Under the pieces are notes generated by a model, which saw only the letters and a list, made by a program, of their open reading frames with translations, was not told the origin of the DNA and searched no databases. This document shows positions 403 to 12,745 of a stretch of 64,000 nt of DNA, in pieces (within the stretch, counting starts at the first letter, position 1; each line of letters starts with the position of its first letter). The stretch is from assembly GCF_900182665.1 (NCBI RefSeq), contig NZ_FXTL01000008.1, positions 23,664 to 87,663 on the forward strand, in the 5' to 3' direction. This DNA is from Propioniciclava tarda (GTDB taxonomy: Bacteria > Actinomycetota > Actinomycetes > Propionibacteriales > Propionibacteriaceae). A program made the position numbers and the translations under genes.

Positions 403-669
403 GTATGGGTCCTCGATCAAGCTCCGGCCCTCTCACAGGGCCCTTCGACAGCGCCGTCGTTATCTCGCCGATATCTGTCTAGGCAACCATAATCCGCACG
501 TTCGGCCGCCGAGGGTAAACGCGCCAGTTCGTAACGAACAGGTCACGGAGTCTTGGTGTGGTCGTTGCCACGTCGCGCTCTGGCCGGTGGTGGCTGGTAC
601 GAAAGTACCGTTTGGGTCGTTCTTTGGTGCCGGTGTTGTCGTCCGCCCAGCTTCGACCTGGCCGGGAGG

Positions 670-2394
670 GTGACCACGGTGACCACGACGGTGGCGGGGG
701 TGGCCTCGACGGTGGGGTATAGCTGGCGGGATGATGGGCAGATGACTGCGATCACCCTTGATGGTGTGGCGGTGGCGACGCTCGGTTATGACCCGGCCGG
801 TGAACTGGCCGGGGTCACTTACCCGTTCGGGGGACTGGGTGGCCTCACTAAACAGCCCTCCGGTGCCCTTGTGGGTGATGCGTGGACGGTGAACCTGGCC
901 AACGGTGCCAGCCGTACCTTCACCGAGTCGTTGACCCGCTCCCAGGCTGGCAGGGTCACCGCGTCATCCTGGACCGATACCGGCAGTCCGGGTAGTGCGG
1001 TGGGGTGGGGGTACAGCTATGACCAGGCCGGACGCCTTACCCAAGCTGTCCTGGCCCCGGCGGCAGGACGGGCCCAAACCAGCTTCGGGTACAGCTTCAC
1101 CCCCACCGGTGGGTGTGGCGCTGACCCGCAAGCCGGCAAGAACGGGTCACGTACCGGGTCAAGTATCCAGACCGGCGCTGGCACACCGCAGGTGACGTCG
1201 TACTGCTACGACCAGGCCTCCCGGCTCACCGCCACCACCGGCGCTAACCCGATCGATCCGGGCACGGTCAGCTACGACCCGCACGGGAACGCGACCCGGA
1301 TCGGTGATCAAACCTGGACCTACAACGCTGCCGACCAAGTCACCGGCACCACGGTGGTGTCGGCGGGGCAACAGCTCGGCTACACGCGTGACCCATCCGG
1401 TCGGGTCGTGCAACGCCAAGCCACGGGCCCTGAAACCGCCACGGCACGCTACGGGTTCGCCGGTGGGGACGATTCCCCAGACTTGCTGCTTGATCCGGCT
1501 GGTCAACCTGTGGAGCGGTATCTGTCTTTGCCTGGCGGGGTCCTGCTCACCAAGCCCACCACCGGTGCCGCCACGAGGTGGGCGGTACCGAACCTGCACG
1601 GCGACACCAGCATCCTGATCGGTATCACCAACGGTGCCGTCACGATCAGCGGTGCAGGCTGGATCAACGACCCGTACGGCCAACCGATCAACCCGAACAC
1701 CGGGCAGATCGACTTGGCAGCCACCCCCACCACCCGGACCGGCACCACGACCACCGATGCCTGGCTCGGTCAACACCAGCGAGGCTTCGAACACACCACC
1801 GGCCTGAACCAAATGCTGATGGGAGCCAGAACCTACCTGCCCAGCCTCGGCATCTTCACTGCTACCGACCCCGTAGAGGGTGGCAACGACACCACCTACA
1901 CCTACCCCAACGACCCCATCAATAAACAAGACCTCAGCGGAGAAAAATGGTGGAATTGGTGGCGCCCCATATCTGGGCTGCAAGTTGCCCGACGCGTATT
2001 GAATCACGGCACCGCTTTCTACTCCTTCAATGGCCCCTTCGTCTCCGCTCAGGGAGGCGTCACATGCATCAAGAGATGCCCATCTGTCTCCGTATCTTTT
2101 GGAGCAGGTGCCTCGGCACAAAAGATCAATAAGGTGGCTAGGTTTGTTCCTGGGACCATGATTGGCTATCAATTTGGGCGACCCACAAACGGGCTGGGTT
2201 TCGGTGCCGCAGCATGCTGGCACGGCTTATGTCTCGGCGCCAGCAGTGGTGACGAAGGCTGGGGTACAGTTAACGGATTCAGCCCTGTATTTGGAATAGG
2301 CACACCAGGCGTTCAATTATGGGCTTTAGGAACATTTGCAGATGAGCGTTCAGGACAGGGGGCCTCGCCGGGTCGCCCAATGAGGGTAAGGTAG
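670..2394 (+). CDS. RHS / YD-repeat protein, N-terminally truncated (about 570 aa). Has the RHS core terminal motif and a C-terminal variable toxin domain (CT).
   Basis: Multiple YD repeats (GYDPAGELAGVTYPFGG, YSYDQAGRLT, YCYDQASRLT, SYDPHGNATRIGD, WTYNAADQVTG). RHS core end motif GARTYLPSLGIFTATDP...YTYPNDPINKQDLSGE. Start uncertain: GTG 670 or 679, after GGGAGG. No upstream same-strand gene. Confidence 0.8.
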   Translation: MTTVTTTVAGVASTVGYSWRDDGQMTAITLDGVAVATLGYDPAGELAGVTYPFGGLGGLTKQPSGALVGDAWTVNLANGASRTFTESLTRSQAGRVTASSWTDTGSPGSAVGWGYSYDQAGRLTQAVLAPAAGRAQTSFGYSFTPTGGCGADPQAGKNGSRTGSSIQTGAGTPQVTSYCYDQASRLTATTGANPIDPGTVSYDPHGNATRIGDQTWTYNAADQVTGTTVVSAGQQLGYTRDPSGRVVQRQATGPETATARYGFAGGDDSPDLLLDPAGQPVERYLSLPGGVLLTKPTTGAATRWAVPNLHGDTSILIGITNGAVTISGAGWINDPYGQPINPNTGQIDLAATPTTRTGTTTTDAWLGQHQRGFEHTTGLNQMLMGARTYLPSLGIFTATDPVEGGNDTTYTYPNDPINKQDLSGEKWWNWWRPISGLQVARRVLNHGTAFYSFNGPFVSAQGGVTCIKRCPSVSVSFGAGASAQKINKVARFVPGTMIGYQFGRPTNGLGFGAAACWHGLCLGASSGDEGWGTVNGFSPVFGIGTPGVQLWALGTFADERSGQGASPGRPMRVR

Positions 2395-2395
2395 C

Positions 2396-2791
2396 ATGAA
2401 TGACTCATTGAAGCCGCGGGGTCTCGCGGTAAAAGTCGGGGCGTTTTGCTCGGCTATTGTCCCTCAGTGGTGCCTTGCTCTGGGCCTGTGGGTGGGGATG
2501 CTGACGGGCATGCAATTCTACTTCTTGGCGGGCATGTTGTCGTTTCTCTTGGTCGCTTCGCTTACCTCTCCTTACAGATACTGGAGTCTATTCAGCTCCG
2601 TCCCGTCAAAGACTGAGCATGAAGATCCCGCCTTCGTTCTTCGTGTCAGGCGTGATTACTTGCGTGCCGCGGCGCACTTATCCGGTTGTCCAGTGGAAAT
2701 TGTGGCCATTCTGGCTTGGCTTGGATGGCTTCTGTTAGGAGTTGCTTGGGTGTTCTTGGTCATTGTCGGTGCCCAGGGCGGTGGGTGGTGA
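2396..2791 (+). CDS. Small polytopic membrane protein (131 aa, 3-4 TM). Candidate cognate immunity protein of the RHS CT toxin.
   Basis: ATG 1 nt after the RHS stop (TAG C ATG). Hydrophobic helices. Lies within the low-GC segment together with the toxin CT. Confidence 0.55.
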   Translation: MNDSLKPRGLAVKVGAFCSAIVPQWCLALGLWVGMLTGMQFYFLAGMLSFLLVASLTSPYRYWSLFSSVPSKTEHEDPAFVLRVRRDYLRAAAHLSGCPVEIVAILAWLGWLLLGVAWVFLVIVGAQGGGW

Positions 2792-2955
2792 GTTTTCCCG
2801 GATTCGAATTGGCGCGCCATTAGTGGCAGCCTGGCTTTCCATTCAGGCCCGCAACAGACAGTCCGGACCTGCGGTCAAGCGTGGACGCAGCCCTGGGGCG
2901 AGGCGCCGCCAGGTTTGCGCAAGGACCTCGTTTCGTAAATACTAGTGTTGTGGAA

Positions 2956-3684
2956 ATGGTCTGGAGTGCCCAGTCCGGACAGAGGCCTTCGGCCGCCGGT
3001 CCGCTGGTCGGCGCCCCGGACGCGACCGAGCCCGAAGCGGACGCCACCCGCCGCCGGGTCGCCCGCTCGATTCTGCAGCACGGACCCTCCACCGCCGCCG
3101 ACCTTGCCGACCGCCTGGGACTCACGTCCGCGGCCGTCCGACGGCACCTCTCGGCCCTCGAACTGTCCGGTGAACTCACCACCCGCGAGCAGCGCGTCTA
3201 CGGCGCGCGCGGGCGGGGGCGTCCGGCTCGGGTCTTTGTCCTGACCGACGCCGGACGCCGCACCTTCGACGCCGCCTACGACGAACTCGCCATCAAGGCC
3301 CTCGACTACCTGTCCCGTCGGGTCGGACCCGGCGCCATCGCCGACTTCGCCGAAGAATCACTTGCCCCCGTCGAGGCAAGGTTCGACGAACTGGAGGGCC
3401 ACGGCGACCGCGCCGAGCGGGTCGTCGAGGCGTTCAACCACGCCGGGTACGCAGCAACGCTCAAGCCGCTGGCGTCCGGACAACAACTCTGCCAACATCA
3501 CTGCCCGGTCGCTCACGTCGCCAGGGCCTACCCCGCCATCTGTCTGGCCGAGACCAGGCTGCTGTCCAAGCTGCTCGGCAGCCACGTCCAGCGGCTCGCC
3601 ACGATCGCCTCGGGCGACGAGGTGTGCACCACGCACATCCCGCACCCGGTCGCGGTAGCCATCGAGGAAAGGAAGAGCTCATGA
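2956..3684 (+). CDS. sufR: SufR-like ArsR-family Fe-S-responsive transcriptional repressor of the suf operon
   Basis: Winged HTH ([20 protein letters not shown]). C-terminal Cys cluster ([10 protein letters not shown]...AICLAE...DEVC). Directly upstream of and overlapping sufB. Confidence 0.75.
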
Positions 3685-6630: not shown

Positions 6631-7389
6631 ATGTCCCTCGAAATCCGCGACCTGCACGTCGATGTCATGACGGAGTCCGGGCCCAAAGAGATCCTCAAGG
6701 GCGTCGACCTGACGATCAACCCGGGCGAGGTCCACGCGATCATGGGCCCCAACGGGTCCGGCAAGTCGACCCTGGCCTACGCGCTGATGGGCCACCCGAA
6801 GTACACGATCACGTCCGGCTCCGTCGTCCTCGACGGCGTCGACCTGACCCACCTGGCCGTCGACGAGCGCGCTCGCACCGGACTGTTCTTGGCCATGCAG
6901 TACCCCGTCGAGGTGCCCGGCGTCTCGGTGGCCAACTTCCTGCGCACCGCCAAGACGGCCCTCTCGGGCGAGGCTCCCAAGGTGCGCACCTGGGTCAAGG
7001 AGGTCAACGCCGCGCTGGCGTCCCTCGACCTCGATCCGTCCTTCTCGGCGCGCTCGGTCAACGAGGGCTTCTCGGGCGGCGAGAAGAAGCGCTCCGACAT
7101 CGCCCAGCTGGGCCTGCTCGGCCCGAAGTACGCCGTCCTGGACGAGACCGACTCCGGCCTCGACATCGACGCGCTGCGCGTCGTCGCCGACGGCGTGAAC
7201 CGCTACCTCGCCGACGGCACCCACGGCGTCCTGCTGATCACGCACTACTCGCGCGTGCTGCAGTACATCAAGCCGACCGTCGTGCACGTCTACATGGACG
7301 GCCGCATCGTCGCGTCCGGTGGACCCGAGCTCGCCGACCGCCTGGAGGCCGAGGGCTACGAGCAGTTCGAGGCGCGTGCGGATGCCTGA
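6631..7389 (+). CDS. sufC: Fe-S cluster assembly ATPase SufC
   Basis: Walker A GPNGSGKST. ABC signature FSGGEKKR. Start 1 nt after the Rieske gene stop. Confidence 0.95.
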   Translation: MSLEIRDLHVDVMTESGPKEILKGVDLTINPGEVHAIMGPNGSGKSTLAYALMGHPKYTITSGSVVLDGVDLTHLAVDERARTGLFLAMQYPVEVPGVSVANFLRTAKTALSGEAPKVRTWVKEVNAALASLDLDPSFSARSVNEGFSGGEKKRSDIAQLGLLGPKYAVLDETDSGLDIDALRVVADGVNRYLADGTHGVLLITHYSRVLQYIKPTVVHVYMDGRIVASGGPELADRLEAEGYEQFEARADA

Positions 7390-8656
7390 TCGCTCGCCGT
7401 TCTGGCTGGCGGACGCCGTCCGGCCCGACTTCCCCATCCTGGCTCGCCGGGTGGGGGAGTGGCCGCTGACCTACCTGGACTCGGGCAACACGTCCCAGAA
7501 GCCCAGGCAGGTCGTAGACGCGATCGCCGCCCAGTACCTCGAGCACAACGCCAACGTCGCCCGGGCGATGCACCTGCTGGGCGCCGAGGCCACGGAGGCC
7601 TTCGAGGGCGGACGCGCCAAGGTCGCGTCCTTCATCGGCGGACGCCCCGAGGAGATCGTGTTCACCAAGAACGCTTCCGAGGCCCTGAACCTGGCCGCTC
7701 ACGCGCTCGGCCAGCACCTCAAGCTGGGGCCGGCCGACGAGGTCGTCACGACCGTCATGGAGCACCACAGCAACATCGTCCCGTGGCAGCTCCTGTGCGA
7801 ACGGACCGGCGCCACGCTGCGCTGGTTCGACGTCACCGAGTCCGGACGCCTCGACCTCGCCCAGGCGCACGCCGACGGCCTGCTCAACGAGCGCACCAAG
7901 ATCGTCACCGCCGCCTGGGTTTCGAATGTGCTCGGCACCGTCAACCCCGTCATCGAGCTGGCAGCGCGCGCCCATGCCGTGGGCGCGGTCTTCGTGCTGG
8001 ACGCCTCCCAGGGCGTCCCGCAACTGCCGACCGCCGTCCGCGACCTGGGGGCCGACCTGGTCGCCTTCACCGGCCACAAGATGGTCGGGCCGACCGGCAT
8101 CGGCGTCCTGTGGGGCCGCTACGACCTGCTGGAGAAGCTGCCGCCGTTCCTCGGCGGCGGCGAGATGATCGAGATCGTCGAGATGGAGCGATCCACCTTC
8201 GCGCCCCCGCCAGCCAGGTTCGAAGCCGGGACGCCCCCGATCGCGCAGGCGGTCGGGCTCGGGGCCGCCGCCGACTACCTCAGCGCCCTCGGCATGGACA
8301 ACGTCGCGGCCCACGAGCGGGCGATCACGGCCTATGCGCTGGAGCGCCTCAACGCCATCGACGGGCTGCGCATCCTGGGGCCCAACGAGATCGCCGATCG
8401 CGGCGGGGCCATCGCCTTCACGCTGGCCACCCCGGACGGGGCCGAGGTTCACCCCCACGACCTCATGCAGTTCCTCGACTCGCGCGGGGTCGCCGTCCGC
8501 GGCGGGCATCACTGCGCGCGTCCGCTGCACAAGCGCTTCGGCGTCCAGAGTTCGACGCGGGCGTCCTTCTATCTCTACACGACGCCGGACGAGATCGACC
8601 GGCTCGCGGACTCGCTGATCTATACCCGCGACTTCTTCACCAGGGGGGCAGCATGA
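7382..8656 (+). CDS. sufS: Cysteine desulfurase SufS (class II aminotransferase)
   Basis: PLP-lysine region FTGHKMVGPTGIGVLWG. Active-site Cys motif RGGHHCARPL. Overlaps sufC by 8 nt. Confidence 0.95.
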   Translation: MPDRSPFWLADAVRPDFPILARRVGEWPLTYLDSGNTSQKPRQVVDAIAAQYLEHNANVARAMHLLGAEATEAFEGGRAKVASFIGGRPEEIVFTKNASEALNLAAHALGQHLKLGPADEVVTTVMEHHSNIVPWQLLCERTGATLRWFDVTESGRLDLAQAHADGLLNERTKIVTAAWVSNVLGTVNPVIELAARAHAVGAVFVLDASQGVPQLPTAVRDLGADLVAFTGHKMVGPTGIGVLWGRYDLLEKLPPFLGGGEMIEIVEMERSTFAPPPARFEAGTPPIAQAVGLGAAADYLSALGMDNVAAHERAITAYALERLNAIDGLRILGPNEIADRGGAIAFTLATPDGAEVHPHDLMQFLDSRGVAVRGGHHCARPLHKRFGVQSSTRASFYLYTTPDEIDRLADSLIYTRDFFTRGAA

Positions 8657-9099
8657 GCGTCGAAGCCATGTACCAGGAGATCATCCTGGACCACTACAAG
8701 GCCAAGCATCACGCCGGCCTGCGCGACCCCTACGAGGCCGAAGTCACGCACGTCAATCCCTCCTGCGGCGACGAAATCATGCTGCGCGTCCACCTCGACG
8801 GCGACACCGTCGCGGACGTCTCCTACGACGCCGTCGGCTGCTCGATCTCGCAGGCGTCCACGTCGGTCATGTCGGACCTGGTCATCGGCAAGACCGTCGA
8901 CGAGGGCATGGCCCTCGCGGCGTCCTTCTCGGAGATGATGCACAGCCGCGGCGAGATCGAGCCCGACGAAGACGTTCTTGAGGACGCCGTCGCGTTCGTC
9001 GGCGTCGCCAAGTTCCCCGCGCGCGTCAAGTGCGCCCTGTTGGGCTGGTCTGCGTGGAAGGACGCCGTCGCCCACGCCCTCGCCGCTAAGGAGTCCTGA
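8653..9099 (+). CDS. sufU: SufU / NifU-like Fe-S scaffold / sulfurtransferase
   Basis: Conserved Cys residues (NPSCGDE, VGCSISQAS, KCALLGW). ATGA overlap with sufS. Confidence 0.9.
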   Translation: MSVEAMYQEIILDHYKAKHHAGLRDPYEAEVTHVNPSCGDEIMLRVHLDGDTVADVSYDAVGCSISQASTSVMSDLVIGKTVDEGMALAASFSEMMHSRGEIEPDEDVLEDAVAFVGVAKFPARVKCALLGWSAWKDAVAHALAAKES

Positions 9100-9100
9100 C

Positions 9101-9556
9101 ATGTCCGAGCCGATCACCAGCAGCCTCGCCGACGCCTTCGGCGTCACTGACGAGGCACCCGTCGTCCGCACCGCGCTGGACGACGACGAGCCCCGTCCGT
9201 CGTCGCTGGTGAAGGACACCCTGCCCGGCGAGTTCGGTTCCCGGGTGGTGCCGACGCAGGAAGACATCGTCGAGGCCATGCGCGAGGTCATCGACCCCGA
9301 GCTGGGGGTCAACGTCGTCGACCTGGGCATGGTCGCCGACATCCTCATCGACGACGAGGCCAACGTGATCATCGACATGGTGCCCACGTCGCCCACCTGC
9401 CCCATGACCGACCGCCTCGAGTACAGCGCCGAGCTGGCCACCGAGGGCATGGTGAATTCGTTGGCCGTCAACTGGCTGTGGCTCGAAGTGTGGACGCCGG
9501 CCCGGCTCACCGAGGACGGACGCGAGCAGCTGCGCGCCTTCGGGTTGAACATCTGA
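9101..9556 (+). CDS. sufT: SufT-like DUF59/MIP18 family Fe-S assembly protein
   Basis: DUF59 hallmark VIDPELGVNVVDLGMV and the conserved Cys in PTSPTCPM. Terminal position in the suf operon. Confidence 0.8.
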   Translation: MSEPITSSLADAFGVTDEAPVVRTALDDDEPRPSSLVKDTLPGEFGSRVVPTQEDIVEAMREVIDPELGVNVVDLGMVADILIDDEANVIIDMVPTSPTCPMTDRLEYSAELATEGMVNSLAVNWLWLEVWTPARLTEDGREQLRAFGLNI

Positions 9557-9634
9557 ACGCCCACGCCCCCTGGCGGTGACGCGCCTGGCCAATACACTGA
9601 CGAGCTAGGCGGCACATAGGCTCTTGGAGGCGTC

Positions 9635-10405
9635 GTGGACACTCACCTGTACTTCTCGTTGATCCCTGAGTCGCTCATCGCGTCCCACCTGACCCCCGAC
9701 CAGTTCGGCCAATACTACGCGACCGGGCACGGGTTCAAGTCGAAGGGCCAGGTGCTGTTCTTCGAGCTCGACCCGTCCTTCCGGCACCCGTTCTTCGCGA
9801 TCGACGAGGCGCTGGCCAAGTGCGAAGTACACCCCGACGGCCGCCCCAAGAACTCGGTCTACGTCGCCACCTATCGCGTCCTGGAGCACATCCCCGTCAG
9901 CGCGTTGGGCACCCTCTACGTGACGACCGCCTACGGCGCGACGTTGGCGCTGGCCGCCGCGGACGCGCTGCCGGCCCCGGCGTCCGGACTGCACCTGTAC
10001 AAGGAGATCGCGCCGGTCGACAGCCTGGTGGCGTCGTCGCAGGATCCGCAGCGCTTCTACGAGAGCATCGTGGTCAACCCCTCGAAGTTCGTGCGGTTCC
10101 CGGGCCTGTTCTTCGTCGAGCTGGATCTGGGCCCGCTGGCGGCCGATCCCATGGCCGCGGCCGGCCGGGACCTCCCTTATGACAACATCCACCATCTGCG
10201 CGAAGGGCTGATCGAGGCGGCGCGTCCGGACAAGACGTCGAAGATGGTCGAGCGGGTGCAGTCCCCGGAGTTCGCCTACCGGATGGTCAAGACCGGGTCC
10301 GGCTTCTACTACGGCAACGGACCCGACCTGGTGTGCTACCCGATGCCGTCCCACGACGACCTCCGCGAACACCACCCGCTGTGGTGGCGCTCGGCCAACA
10401 AGTAG
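9635..10405 (+). CDS. Conserved hypothetical protein (256 aa), no family recognised
   Basis: GTG start preceded by GGAGG. GC3-rich ORF. Ends at the shared terminator hairpin. Confidence 0.5.
   Translation: MDTHLYFSLIPESLIASHLTPDQFGQYYATGHGFKSKGQVLFFELDPSFRHPFFAIDEALAKCEVHPDGRPKNSVYVATYRVLEHIPVSALGTLYVTTAYGATLALAAADALPAPASGLHLYKEIAPVDSLVASSQDPQRFYESIVVNPSKFVRFPGLFFVELDLGPLAADPMAAAGRDLPYDNIHHLREGLIEAARPDKTSKMVERVQSPEFAYRMVKTGSGFYYGNGPDLVCYPMPSHDDLREHHPLWWRSANK

Positions 10406-10456: not shown

Positions 10457-12745
<2,289 letters not shown>

Follow-up and report, generated by a model that had tools for sequence, protein, structure and literature searches.

Introduction

The reference case for non-enzymatic RHS payloads is Tse5 of Pseudomonas aeruginosa (RhsP1). 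Its C-terminal tail, Tse5-CT, enters membranes, makes pores that conduct ions and depolarizes cells, and it is paired with Tsi5, an integral-membrane immunity protein with two predicted transmembrane (TM) regions (PMC9637101, PMC10684867). An Rhs pore-forming tail with an integral-membrane immunity protein is therefore already known. We analyzed a 64-kb stretch of DNA, called the window below, from Propioniciclava tarda (Propionibacteriaceae, Actinomycetota), in which a fragment of an rhs gene ends in a 149-amino-acid (aa) tail and is followed by a small open reading frame (ORF) for a candidate immunity protein; coordinates are those of the window, and the GenBank annotation was taken from GCA_004324765.1, contig SDMR01000005.1. 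The P. tarda pair resembles Tse5-CT/Tsi5 in that an Rhs tail without predicted enzymatic activity is encoded directly upstream of an integral-membrane immunity protein. The two differ in that Tse5 is a full-length, PAAR-like protein delivered by a type VI secretion system in a Gram-negative bacterium, whereas the P. tarda tail belongs to an actinobacterium and is attached to a truncated core, and in that Tse5-CT has predicted TM and amphipathic helices, whereas no helix of TM grade is present in the P. tarda tail. The reading we favor, to which we give about an even chance, takes the tail as a non-enzymatic toxin that acts on the membrane and is neutralized in the bilayer, by a mechanism that we infer, and places it on an orphan rhs module that is probably not delivered.

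Two other kinds of system bear on the locus. The tails of WapA in Bacillus subtilis are tRNases with cytosolic immunity proteins (WapA/WapI). The full-length relatives of the P. tarda protein, which have Sec signal peptides and lengths of about 2100 aa, match WapA-like delivery in bacteria without an outer membrane; unlike WapA, the P. tarda locus has a tail without a nuclease signature and a polytopic immunity protein, and its export part is missing. Orphan rhs-CT/rhsI modules have been described in Salmonella, E. coli, Dickeya and Serratia, where core homology permits recombination with the main rhs gene (PMC3150448, PMC3967940, PMC10539506), and the P. tarda locus is built like them, with an immunity gene behind a variable tail on a 5'-truncated piece of rhs core.

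Results

A toxin cassette exchanged on a conserved rhs core

The RHS ORF of P. tarda matches the Pfam family RHS_repeat in three stretches (E = 6.5e-7) and is 28-91% identical to other RHS proteins. TIGR03696, the hidden Markov model for the Rhs-associated core, aligns with aa 412-463 of the 613-aa ORF, ending at nucleotide (nt) 1941, with a score of 31.3 bits that is slightly below the 32.5 cutoff. The features of the locus, all on the forward strand, are as follows.

553-2394, forward: RHS ORF, the longest open frame, 613 aa, with a TTG start at 553
679-2394, forward: GenBank call for the RHS ORF, GTG start, 571 aa, WP_131171578.1, 'RHS repeat protein'
629-1941, forward: retained 3' third of the rhs core, about 437 codons, delimited by nt identity to the relatives L015 and L017
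1906-1941, forward: core-to-tail junction P-N-D-P-I-N-K-Q-D-L-S-G, the end of the Rhs-associated core
1942-2913 (5' edge 1942/1950), forward: swapped cassette of tail, immunity gene and about 120 nt, with homology to relatives on both sides and a drop in GC
1945-2391, with stop codon TAG at 2392-2394, forward: C-terminal tail (candidate toxin), 149 aa, KWWNWWRP...RPMRVR
2212-2253, forward: motif A-C-W-H-G-L-C-L-G-A-S-S-G-D, tail residues 90-103, the sole block shared with the tail of the relative P0013
2382-2392, forward: Shine-Dalgarno-like GAGGGTAAGGT, as read from the sequence, with GAGGG/AAGG 5-10 nt before the immunity start
2396-2791, forward: candidate immunity ORF, 131 aa, ATG at 2396, uncalled in the GenBank record
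2770-2797, forward: weak hairpin that resembles a terminator and has a T-run, located where the immunity ORF ends, no more than expected by chance

The junction motif YPNDPINKQDLSG is common to all relatives at the point where their tails diverge (L003-L013, P0003-P0046); it is kept in about 50 relatives with a different tail on each, and in P. tarda the 149-aa tail starts after it, the next residue being E. The closest relatives place the limits of the variable unit. L015, from a sequencing-run assembly, is 90% identical in nt to window positions 629-1941 and divergent beyond 1941, and its protein, P0003, has a core 91% identical to that of P. tarda yet a different tail (AWW and a hydrophobic segment) and different downstream ORFs. 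L017 is 89% identical in nt to positions 668-1949 and matches again at 2914-3011, and since the match stands on both sides of the cassette, this is the same sufR-adjacent chromosomal site; in L017 an HExxH-type tail and an ORF of 194 aa occupy the stretch between its two matches. The cassette has a GC content of 54-58%, or 55% as a single figure, compared with about 66% for the rhs core and about 70% for sufR. The homology breaks at 1941/1949, the resumption at 2914 and the drop in GC together place the exchanged unit at about 1942-2913.

Judged from these alignments, the sufR-adjacent rhs locus is conserved and only the cassette has been exchanged. The comparisons show a polymorphic-toxin cassette, composed of the candidate toxin tail and its predicted cognate membrane immunity gene, recombined onto the rhs core at the DPINKQDLSG junction. 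The flanking core is 90% identical to that of L015, with a ratio of nonsynonymous to synonymous substitution rates (dN/dS) of 0.17, which argues that the unique tail came from an unsampled source and did not arise by decay in place. The cassette is an ordinary swappable bacterial toxin cassette of known RHS type, and the family of its tail is undescribed.

Truncation of the rhs gene

Homology to rhs starts at nt 629, and the part of the ORF before this point has none, so that 629 marks the breakpoint of the truncation. The rhs sequences of L017 and P0003 extend further 5' than the P. tarda fragment, and full-length relatives (L003-L006) are 1727-2174 aa long, with Sec signal peptides at the starts of L003 and L004; inspection of the P. 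tarda RHS ORF revealed no signal peptide. The start of homology at 629, the longer relatives and the signal peptides of the full-length proteins show that the P. tarda gene is 5'-truncated: its 5' two-thirds, which would have encoded the signal peptide and the larger part of the shell, have been lost. About 440 core residues are retained, short of a complete shell with an N-terminal export or trafficking region, and no full-length rhs partner was seen within the window. The RHS fragment is thus a solitary orphan or remnant module and no full RHS toxin, and it appears to be the leftover of a main rhs gene after a 5' deletion at the conserved sufR-adjacent site. Because a core of about 440 residues that lacks an export signal is unable to form the RHS cocoon, the toxin is probably undelivered in this genome, that is, as it stands it is probably neither exportable nor deployed in P. 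tarda. What remains of the core is undegraded, by the identity and dN/dS values relative to L015 given above.

Several relatives are also interrupted or rearranged. L017 (1-3144; APMI01131852.1) contains a longer rhs that is broken by frameshifts, of which P0006 is the first piece, and its HExxH tail has a weak match to Peptidase_M48 (E = 0.077). In L015 the RHS fragment encoding P0003 (1785-3677) begins at a distance of about 200 nt from two transposase genes of the IS3 family with rve and HTH_Tnp_1 domains (82-1586), which represents another way to truncate the same rhs core. In P0027 and P0035 a major facilitator superfamily transporter (PF07690) or a Sua5/YciO-like domain (PF01300) runs into the last ~200 RHS core residues and a tail; these chimeric ORFs may be insertions of RHS fragments into other genes, or assembly chimeras.

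The tail and the candidate immunity protein

The intact frame continues from the RHS core into the tail, the other two forward frames carry several stops, and the chance of 149 stop-free codons at the local base composition is about 0.002. The idea that the tail is a frameshifted known domain was rejected because the alternative frames are full of stops. The tail is basic (isoelectric point (pI) 10.6; 14 K+R versus 4 D+E; 2 His and 4 Cys) and rich in glycine (17.4%, versus 14.2% in the RHS core), with Gly and Pro together making up 23%. Residues 18-132 are nearly without charge, and two apolar arms, residues 80-102 and 105-132, lie on either side of an S-S-G-D-E-G-W-G turn.

Searches of Pfam, NCBIfam and PHROGs with the tail gave no match at E<=1, including none to the nuclease, deaminase, ADP-ribosyltransferase, NADase and peptidase families of Pfam and NCBIfam. 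Among PDB sequences nothing was better than E = 2.5, which applies also to the comparison with Tse5-CT, for which the deposited Tse5 cryo-EM sequence (PMC10684867) may not include the tail. A word-index search of 5.8 billion clusters, which depends on shared 5-mers, found no homologues of the tail, and a tblastn search of plasmids found no match. An exhaustive phmmer search of 1.84 billion cluster representatives returned only the protein itself and one spurious match, P0002, a subtilase with repeated 'GLGFGA' segments that was judged to be a low-complexity artefact. The box of class IIa (pediocin-like) bacteriocins reads YGNGV-x-C-x4-C-x-V-x-W-G. The A-C-x4-C-L-G...G-W-G of the tail resembles it, as a resemblance only, and the tail has neither YGNGV nor a match at E<=1 to Bacteriocin_II or any other Pfam family.

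The ATG of the candidate immunity ORF at 2396 lies 1 nt past the toxin stop, a spacing that suggests translational coupling of the two predicted genes. The chance of this open frame is about 0.015. The encoded protein has a grand average of hydropathy (GRAVY) of +0.76 and three membrane-grade hydrophobic segments. Two of them would lie in an apolar stretch of 44 residues (aa 14-57) that is long enough for a helical hairpin; the third (aa 99-125), for which the Kyte-Doolittle mean over 19 residues rises to 2.5, follows a positively charged loop with six Arg/Lys (aa 58-98). By the positive-inside rule the N-terminus and the loop would be cytoplasmic, with little exposed outside, and because the immunity protein would expose almost nothing outside the bilayer, the toxin would be blocked within the membrane. 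A word-index search found no homologues of this ORF, it is absent from a collection of 15 billion proteins, and the family and PDB-sequence libraries held nothing meaningful; weak matches to DUF3040 (E = 0.24) and SCO2097 (E = 0.42) were dismissed.

These results bear on a first-pass annotation of the same DNA. It had placed the tail directly after the RHS core, and the end of the TIGR03696 match and the stop of DNA homology at 1941 or 1949 agree with that position. It had also described the tail as unclassifiable and as something other than a nuclease or deaminase, which the family and PDB searches bear out: nothing indicating either activity was found in the tail, and no confident match to a known enzymatic toxin, the outcome it had set against its own reading, turned up in Pfam, NCBIfam, PHROGs or PDB sequences. 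Its description of the adjacent immunity candidate as an integral membrane protein stands as well, given the three hydrophobic segments and the start of the ORF 1 nt after the toxin stop. The residues it quoted from the RHS protein were correct, and it overlooked the 5' truncation, the lost Sec signal peptide and the Tse5/Tsi5 precedent.

A candidate relative and the sister tails

Some 40 tails taken from RHS relatives were compared with the P. tarda tail, and one of them, that of the P0013 cluster from wastewater metagenomes, stood out. The pair gives a BLASTP E of 6e-4; in a phmmer search of the 40-sequence set the P0013 tail scored E = 0.0012 and the next tail 0.2; and the Smith-Waterman score was 66, versus 34+/-6 for shuffled sequences (p = 4e-4) and 44 for the next-best real tail. 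The global alignment of the two tails is colinear with 28% identity, and its 32 invariant positions comprise 11 Gly, 2 Cys and no D, E, H, K or R. The shared block at 2212-2253, with the consensus A-C-[WY]-x2-[LV]-C-L-G-[AV]-S-S-G-[DN]...G-W, contains the C-x4-C pair and a GxxxG at residues 98-102, and its DNA pattern is unique in the window. The P0013 tail also precedes an overlapping ORF, of 119 aa, in which two TM segments, a loop and one TM segment follow each other.

The P0013-type module was found on a wastewater contig, L018 (1580-11910), as part of an array in which a 2368-aa RHS protein with a weak PA14 match is followed by a soluble ORF of 330 aa, then by an orphan RHS fragment of 517 aa that ends in the P0013-type tail, and lastly by the 119-aa three-TM ORF. 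The orphan module there lies downstream of the 2368-aa RHS and of that protein's own immunity gene, whereas the P. tarda fragment is solitary. A Transposase_mut gene was observed upstream of the array. Metagenome scans with patterns derived from the alignment found no confirmed relative of the tail, and the degenerate pattern A-C-[WYF]-x2-[LV]-C-L-G-[AV]-S-S-G-[DN] recovered only another copy of the P0013 locus, L016, and no third member, so that on these scans the tail family would comprise at most two known sequence types.

A different, recurrent tail type without a Pfam family occurs in Propionibacteriaceae (L004, L005, L006, L008, L009, L010 and L013; P0003, P0026, P0044 and P0045). In these sister tails (A)WW follows the DPINxxD junction, a strongly hydrophobic segment rich in Gly, Ala, Ser and Cys comes next, and the end is very basic; Kyte-Doolittle values reach 1.9-2.4 over 19 residues, there are 28-35 K+R, the pI is 11-12, and several of the tails precede multi-TM ORFs of 120-140 aa. 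The P. tarda tail is like them in its junction, length (136-155 aa in the sisters), W-W start and basic pI, and it differs in having neither the TM-grade segment nor the 28-35 K+R; the sister tails look more like membrane toxins than it does. Assignment of the P. tarda tail to this 'AWW-TM-basic' type was considered and rejected, as there is no detectable similarity.

Neighboring genes and signals

The rhs fragment is bordered by a divergent H+-pyrophosphatase gene, with its 5' end near nt 400, and by the sufR-sufBDC operon, whose start is at about nt 2957. Two paralogous H+-translocating pyrophosphatases (860 and 762 aa) stand on either side of the P. tarda suf operon.

1-400 and 10457-12745 in the window, reverse: H+-translocating pyrophosphatase paralogues
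7140-9722 and 19779-21716 in L001: the corresponding H+-translocating pyrophosphatase paralogues

An antisense open frame of 354 aa (1159-2223, reverse strand) runs across the RHS ORF, which is usual for high-GC DNA, and it shows no sign of being a gene. Scans for promoters, terminators and repeats gave nothing exceeding chance, and the promoter scan predicted neither a promoter-like site upstream of the fragment nor an internal promoter.

Discussion

A membrane-acting toxin is suggested by several features taken together: the polytopic immunity protein, the similar arrangement at the P0013 locus, the lack of catalytic-type conservation or of an enzymatic family, the basic and nearly uncharged tail, the membrane-type tails of the sister proteins, and the Tse5/Tsi5 precedent. 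The membrane as target is plausible, on the basis of the membrane immunity protein, the absence of conserved catalytic-type residues in the sole candidate alignment, and analogy. In the mechanism we propose, the tail would target related Gram-positive cells and act at or within their cytoplasmic membrane as a basic, Gly/aromatic-rich peptide, possibly stabilized by a C-x4-C disulfide loop. Two almost uncharged arms in the last ~50 residues would insert and oligomerize via small-residue packing, the inserted tail would dissipate the membrane potential, and the three-TM immunity protein would block the toxin inside the membrane. The module more likely persists as an immunity gene against neighbors and as a silent toxin reservoir, which recombination with a full-length rhs could reactivate; it would fill one or both of these roles, which are known from orphan rhs modules (PMC3150448, PMC3967940).

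A number of points weigh against this reading. Membrane-anchored immunity proteins are also found beside toxins directed at cell-wall precursors. The link to P0013 is weak, with p about 0.016 after 40 comparisons, and the P. tarda and P0013 immunity proteins have no sequence similarity to each other (E = 1.2; shuffle p = 0.47). The small-xxx-small motifs of the tail are at chance level for its composition, and the tail has no segment of TM grade, its highest 19-residue Kyte-Doolittle window being 1.0. AlphaFold2 gave a predicted local distance difference test score (pLDDT) of 31.5 from the single sequence and 30.3 from the two-sequence alignment. The result that the tail has no homologues is itself soft, as each 50% cluster has a single representative in the exhaustive library and RHS proteins cluster by their cores, which hides most of their tails. 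The region upstream of the fragment yielded no promoter-like site, and the mechanism has been read from sequence.

Most characterized RHS tails are enzymes, and some other tails on the same RHS family look enzymatic, such as the HExxH-type tails of L017, P0005, P0024, P0025 and P0029. The P. tarda tail might likewise be an enzyme with an envelope or cytoplasmic target, cleaving lipid II or undecaprenyl-phosphate or being a very divergent small nuclease or ADP-ribosyltransferase, with the membrane protein as its anchored inhibitor; a new fold is possible despite the absent family match. We consider this unlikely, however, as no D, E, H, K or R is conserved in the alignment with P0013, the 149-aa tail has only four acidic and two His residues, four libraries gave no family match at E<=1, and the immunity protein, as predicted, would offer very little outside the bilayer for a soluble enzyme to bind.

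Glycine-rich, non-enzymatic, membrane-depolarizing toxins with small-xxx-small motifs include CdzC/CdzD, EsxX, microcin V and TelE (PMC5380434, PMC12744356). The first-pass annotation had called the P. tarda tail Gly-zipper-rich and hydrophobic and read it as a pore former with an alpha-helical glycine zipper, like microcin V, CdzC-D or class II bacteriocins. The part of this that holds is the glycine content and the presence of motifs: tail residues 70-78 form a GxxxGxxxG and residues 90-102 an AxxxGxxxGxxxG. The immunity ORF has a matching GxxxGxxxG at G30/G34/G38 (window 2483-2509), inside its first hydrophobic stretch; that these residues could pack against an A90/G94/G98/G102 face of the tail is pure speculation. 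The motif counts, however, stay within the range of composition-matched shuffles of the tail: 7 GxxxG pairs versus 4.3+/-1.7 (p = 0.10), 22 small-xxx-small pairs versus 17.4+/-2.8 (p = 0.07), and 2 GxxxGxxxG triplets versus 0.7 (p = 0.17). Nor is the tail hydrophobic, as its GRAVY is -0.03 and its best window falls below the customary 19-residue transmembrane threshold of 1.6 and far short of the 1.9-2.4 of the sister tails. The known toxins carry their zipper in a helix of evident hydrophobicity, whereas the P. tarda tail has no tandem zipper inside a hydrophobic, TM-competent helix and no sequence or profile match to these toxins, including none to a Gly-zipper or bacteriocin family in Pfam. 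P0013, as one weak relative, keeps only G98 and G102; G94, G74 and G78 are not conserved.

A further caution against such motif readings comes from Tse4, formerly interpreted as a glycine-zipper helix and now modelled as a beta-barrel (PMC11630599). Together with the 23% Gly+Pro and the lack of a TM-grade segment, this argues against a simple helical glycine zipper, which we regard as distinctly improbable. For the favored membrane-acting toxin we lean instead toward a beta or hairpin structure, on the basis of the same Gly+Pro content and the absence of a TM-grade helix. It is conceivable, as a tentative extension, that the P. tarda and P0013 tails belong to an unrecognized family of small, non-enzymatic, Gly/aromatic-rich toxins with a C-x4-C-L-G-x-S-S-G...G-W hairpin, delivered by Sec-exported RHS proteins of Actinomycetota and forming a beta-type or hairpin pore, not a helical zipper, with three-TM immunity proteins acting in the bilayer.

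The module might instead be a dead relic, in which the tail is neither expressed nor active after the 5' deletion and at most the immunity ORF matters. The truncation at 629, the missing signal peptide, the lack of a promoter-like match upstream, an immunity ORF that was left uncalled in the genome annotation, the frameshifted close relative at the same locus (P0006/L017), and third-position GC content (GC3) in the tail without codon-position bias are all in keeping with it. Against it, both ORFs are intact and tightly coupled; drift is absent from the neighboring core, which means that decay in place does not account for a tail without relatives; and other orphan rhs modules encode functional toxin/immunity pairs (PMC3150448, PMC3967940). 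We therefore think a relic quite unlikely. Least probable of all is a toxin-antitoxin-like pair working inside the producer from internal start sites, as reported for a delivery-less Salmonella orphan Rhs that works as a type II toxin-antitoxin-like module (PMC7043789), since, although the window has the same architecture of truncated core, tail and immunity gene, no internal promoter was predicted and a membrane immunity protein with a tail lacking an enzymatic signature is unlike the partners of type II systems.

As it stands, the P. tarda tail joins a very large number of polymorphic-toxin tails that are unclassified, its gene is truncated, and its practical value is modest. If the tail is membrane-active, it would be an Actinomycetota example among the few non-enzymatic RHS payloads, and it would represent a new family of small pore-forming or ionophore peptides with their own intramembrane immunity protein. 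It would then help to explain competition among Propionibacteriaceae in wastewater and anaerobic-digester communities, and it would be of use as a minimal membrane-toxin/immunity pair.

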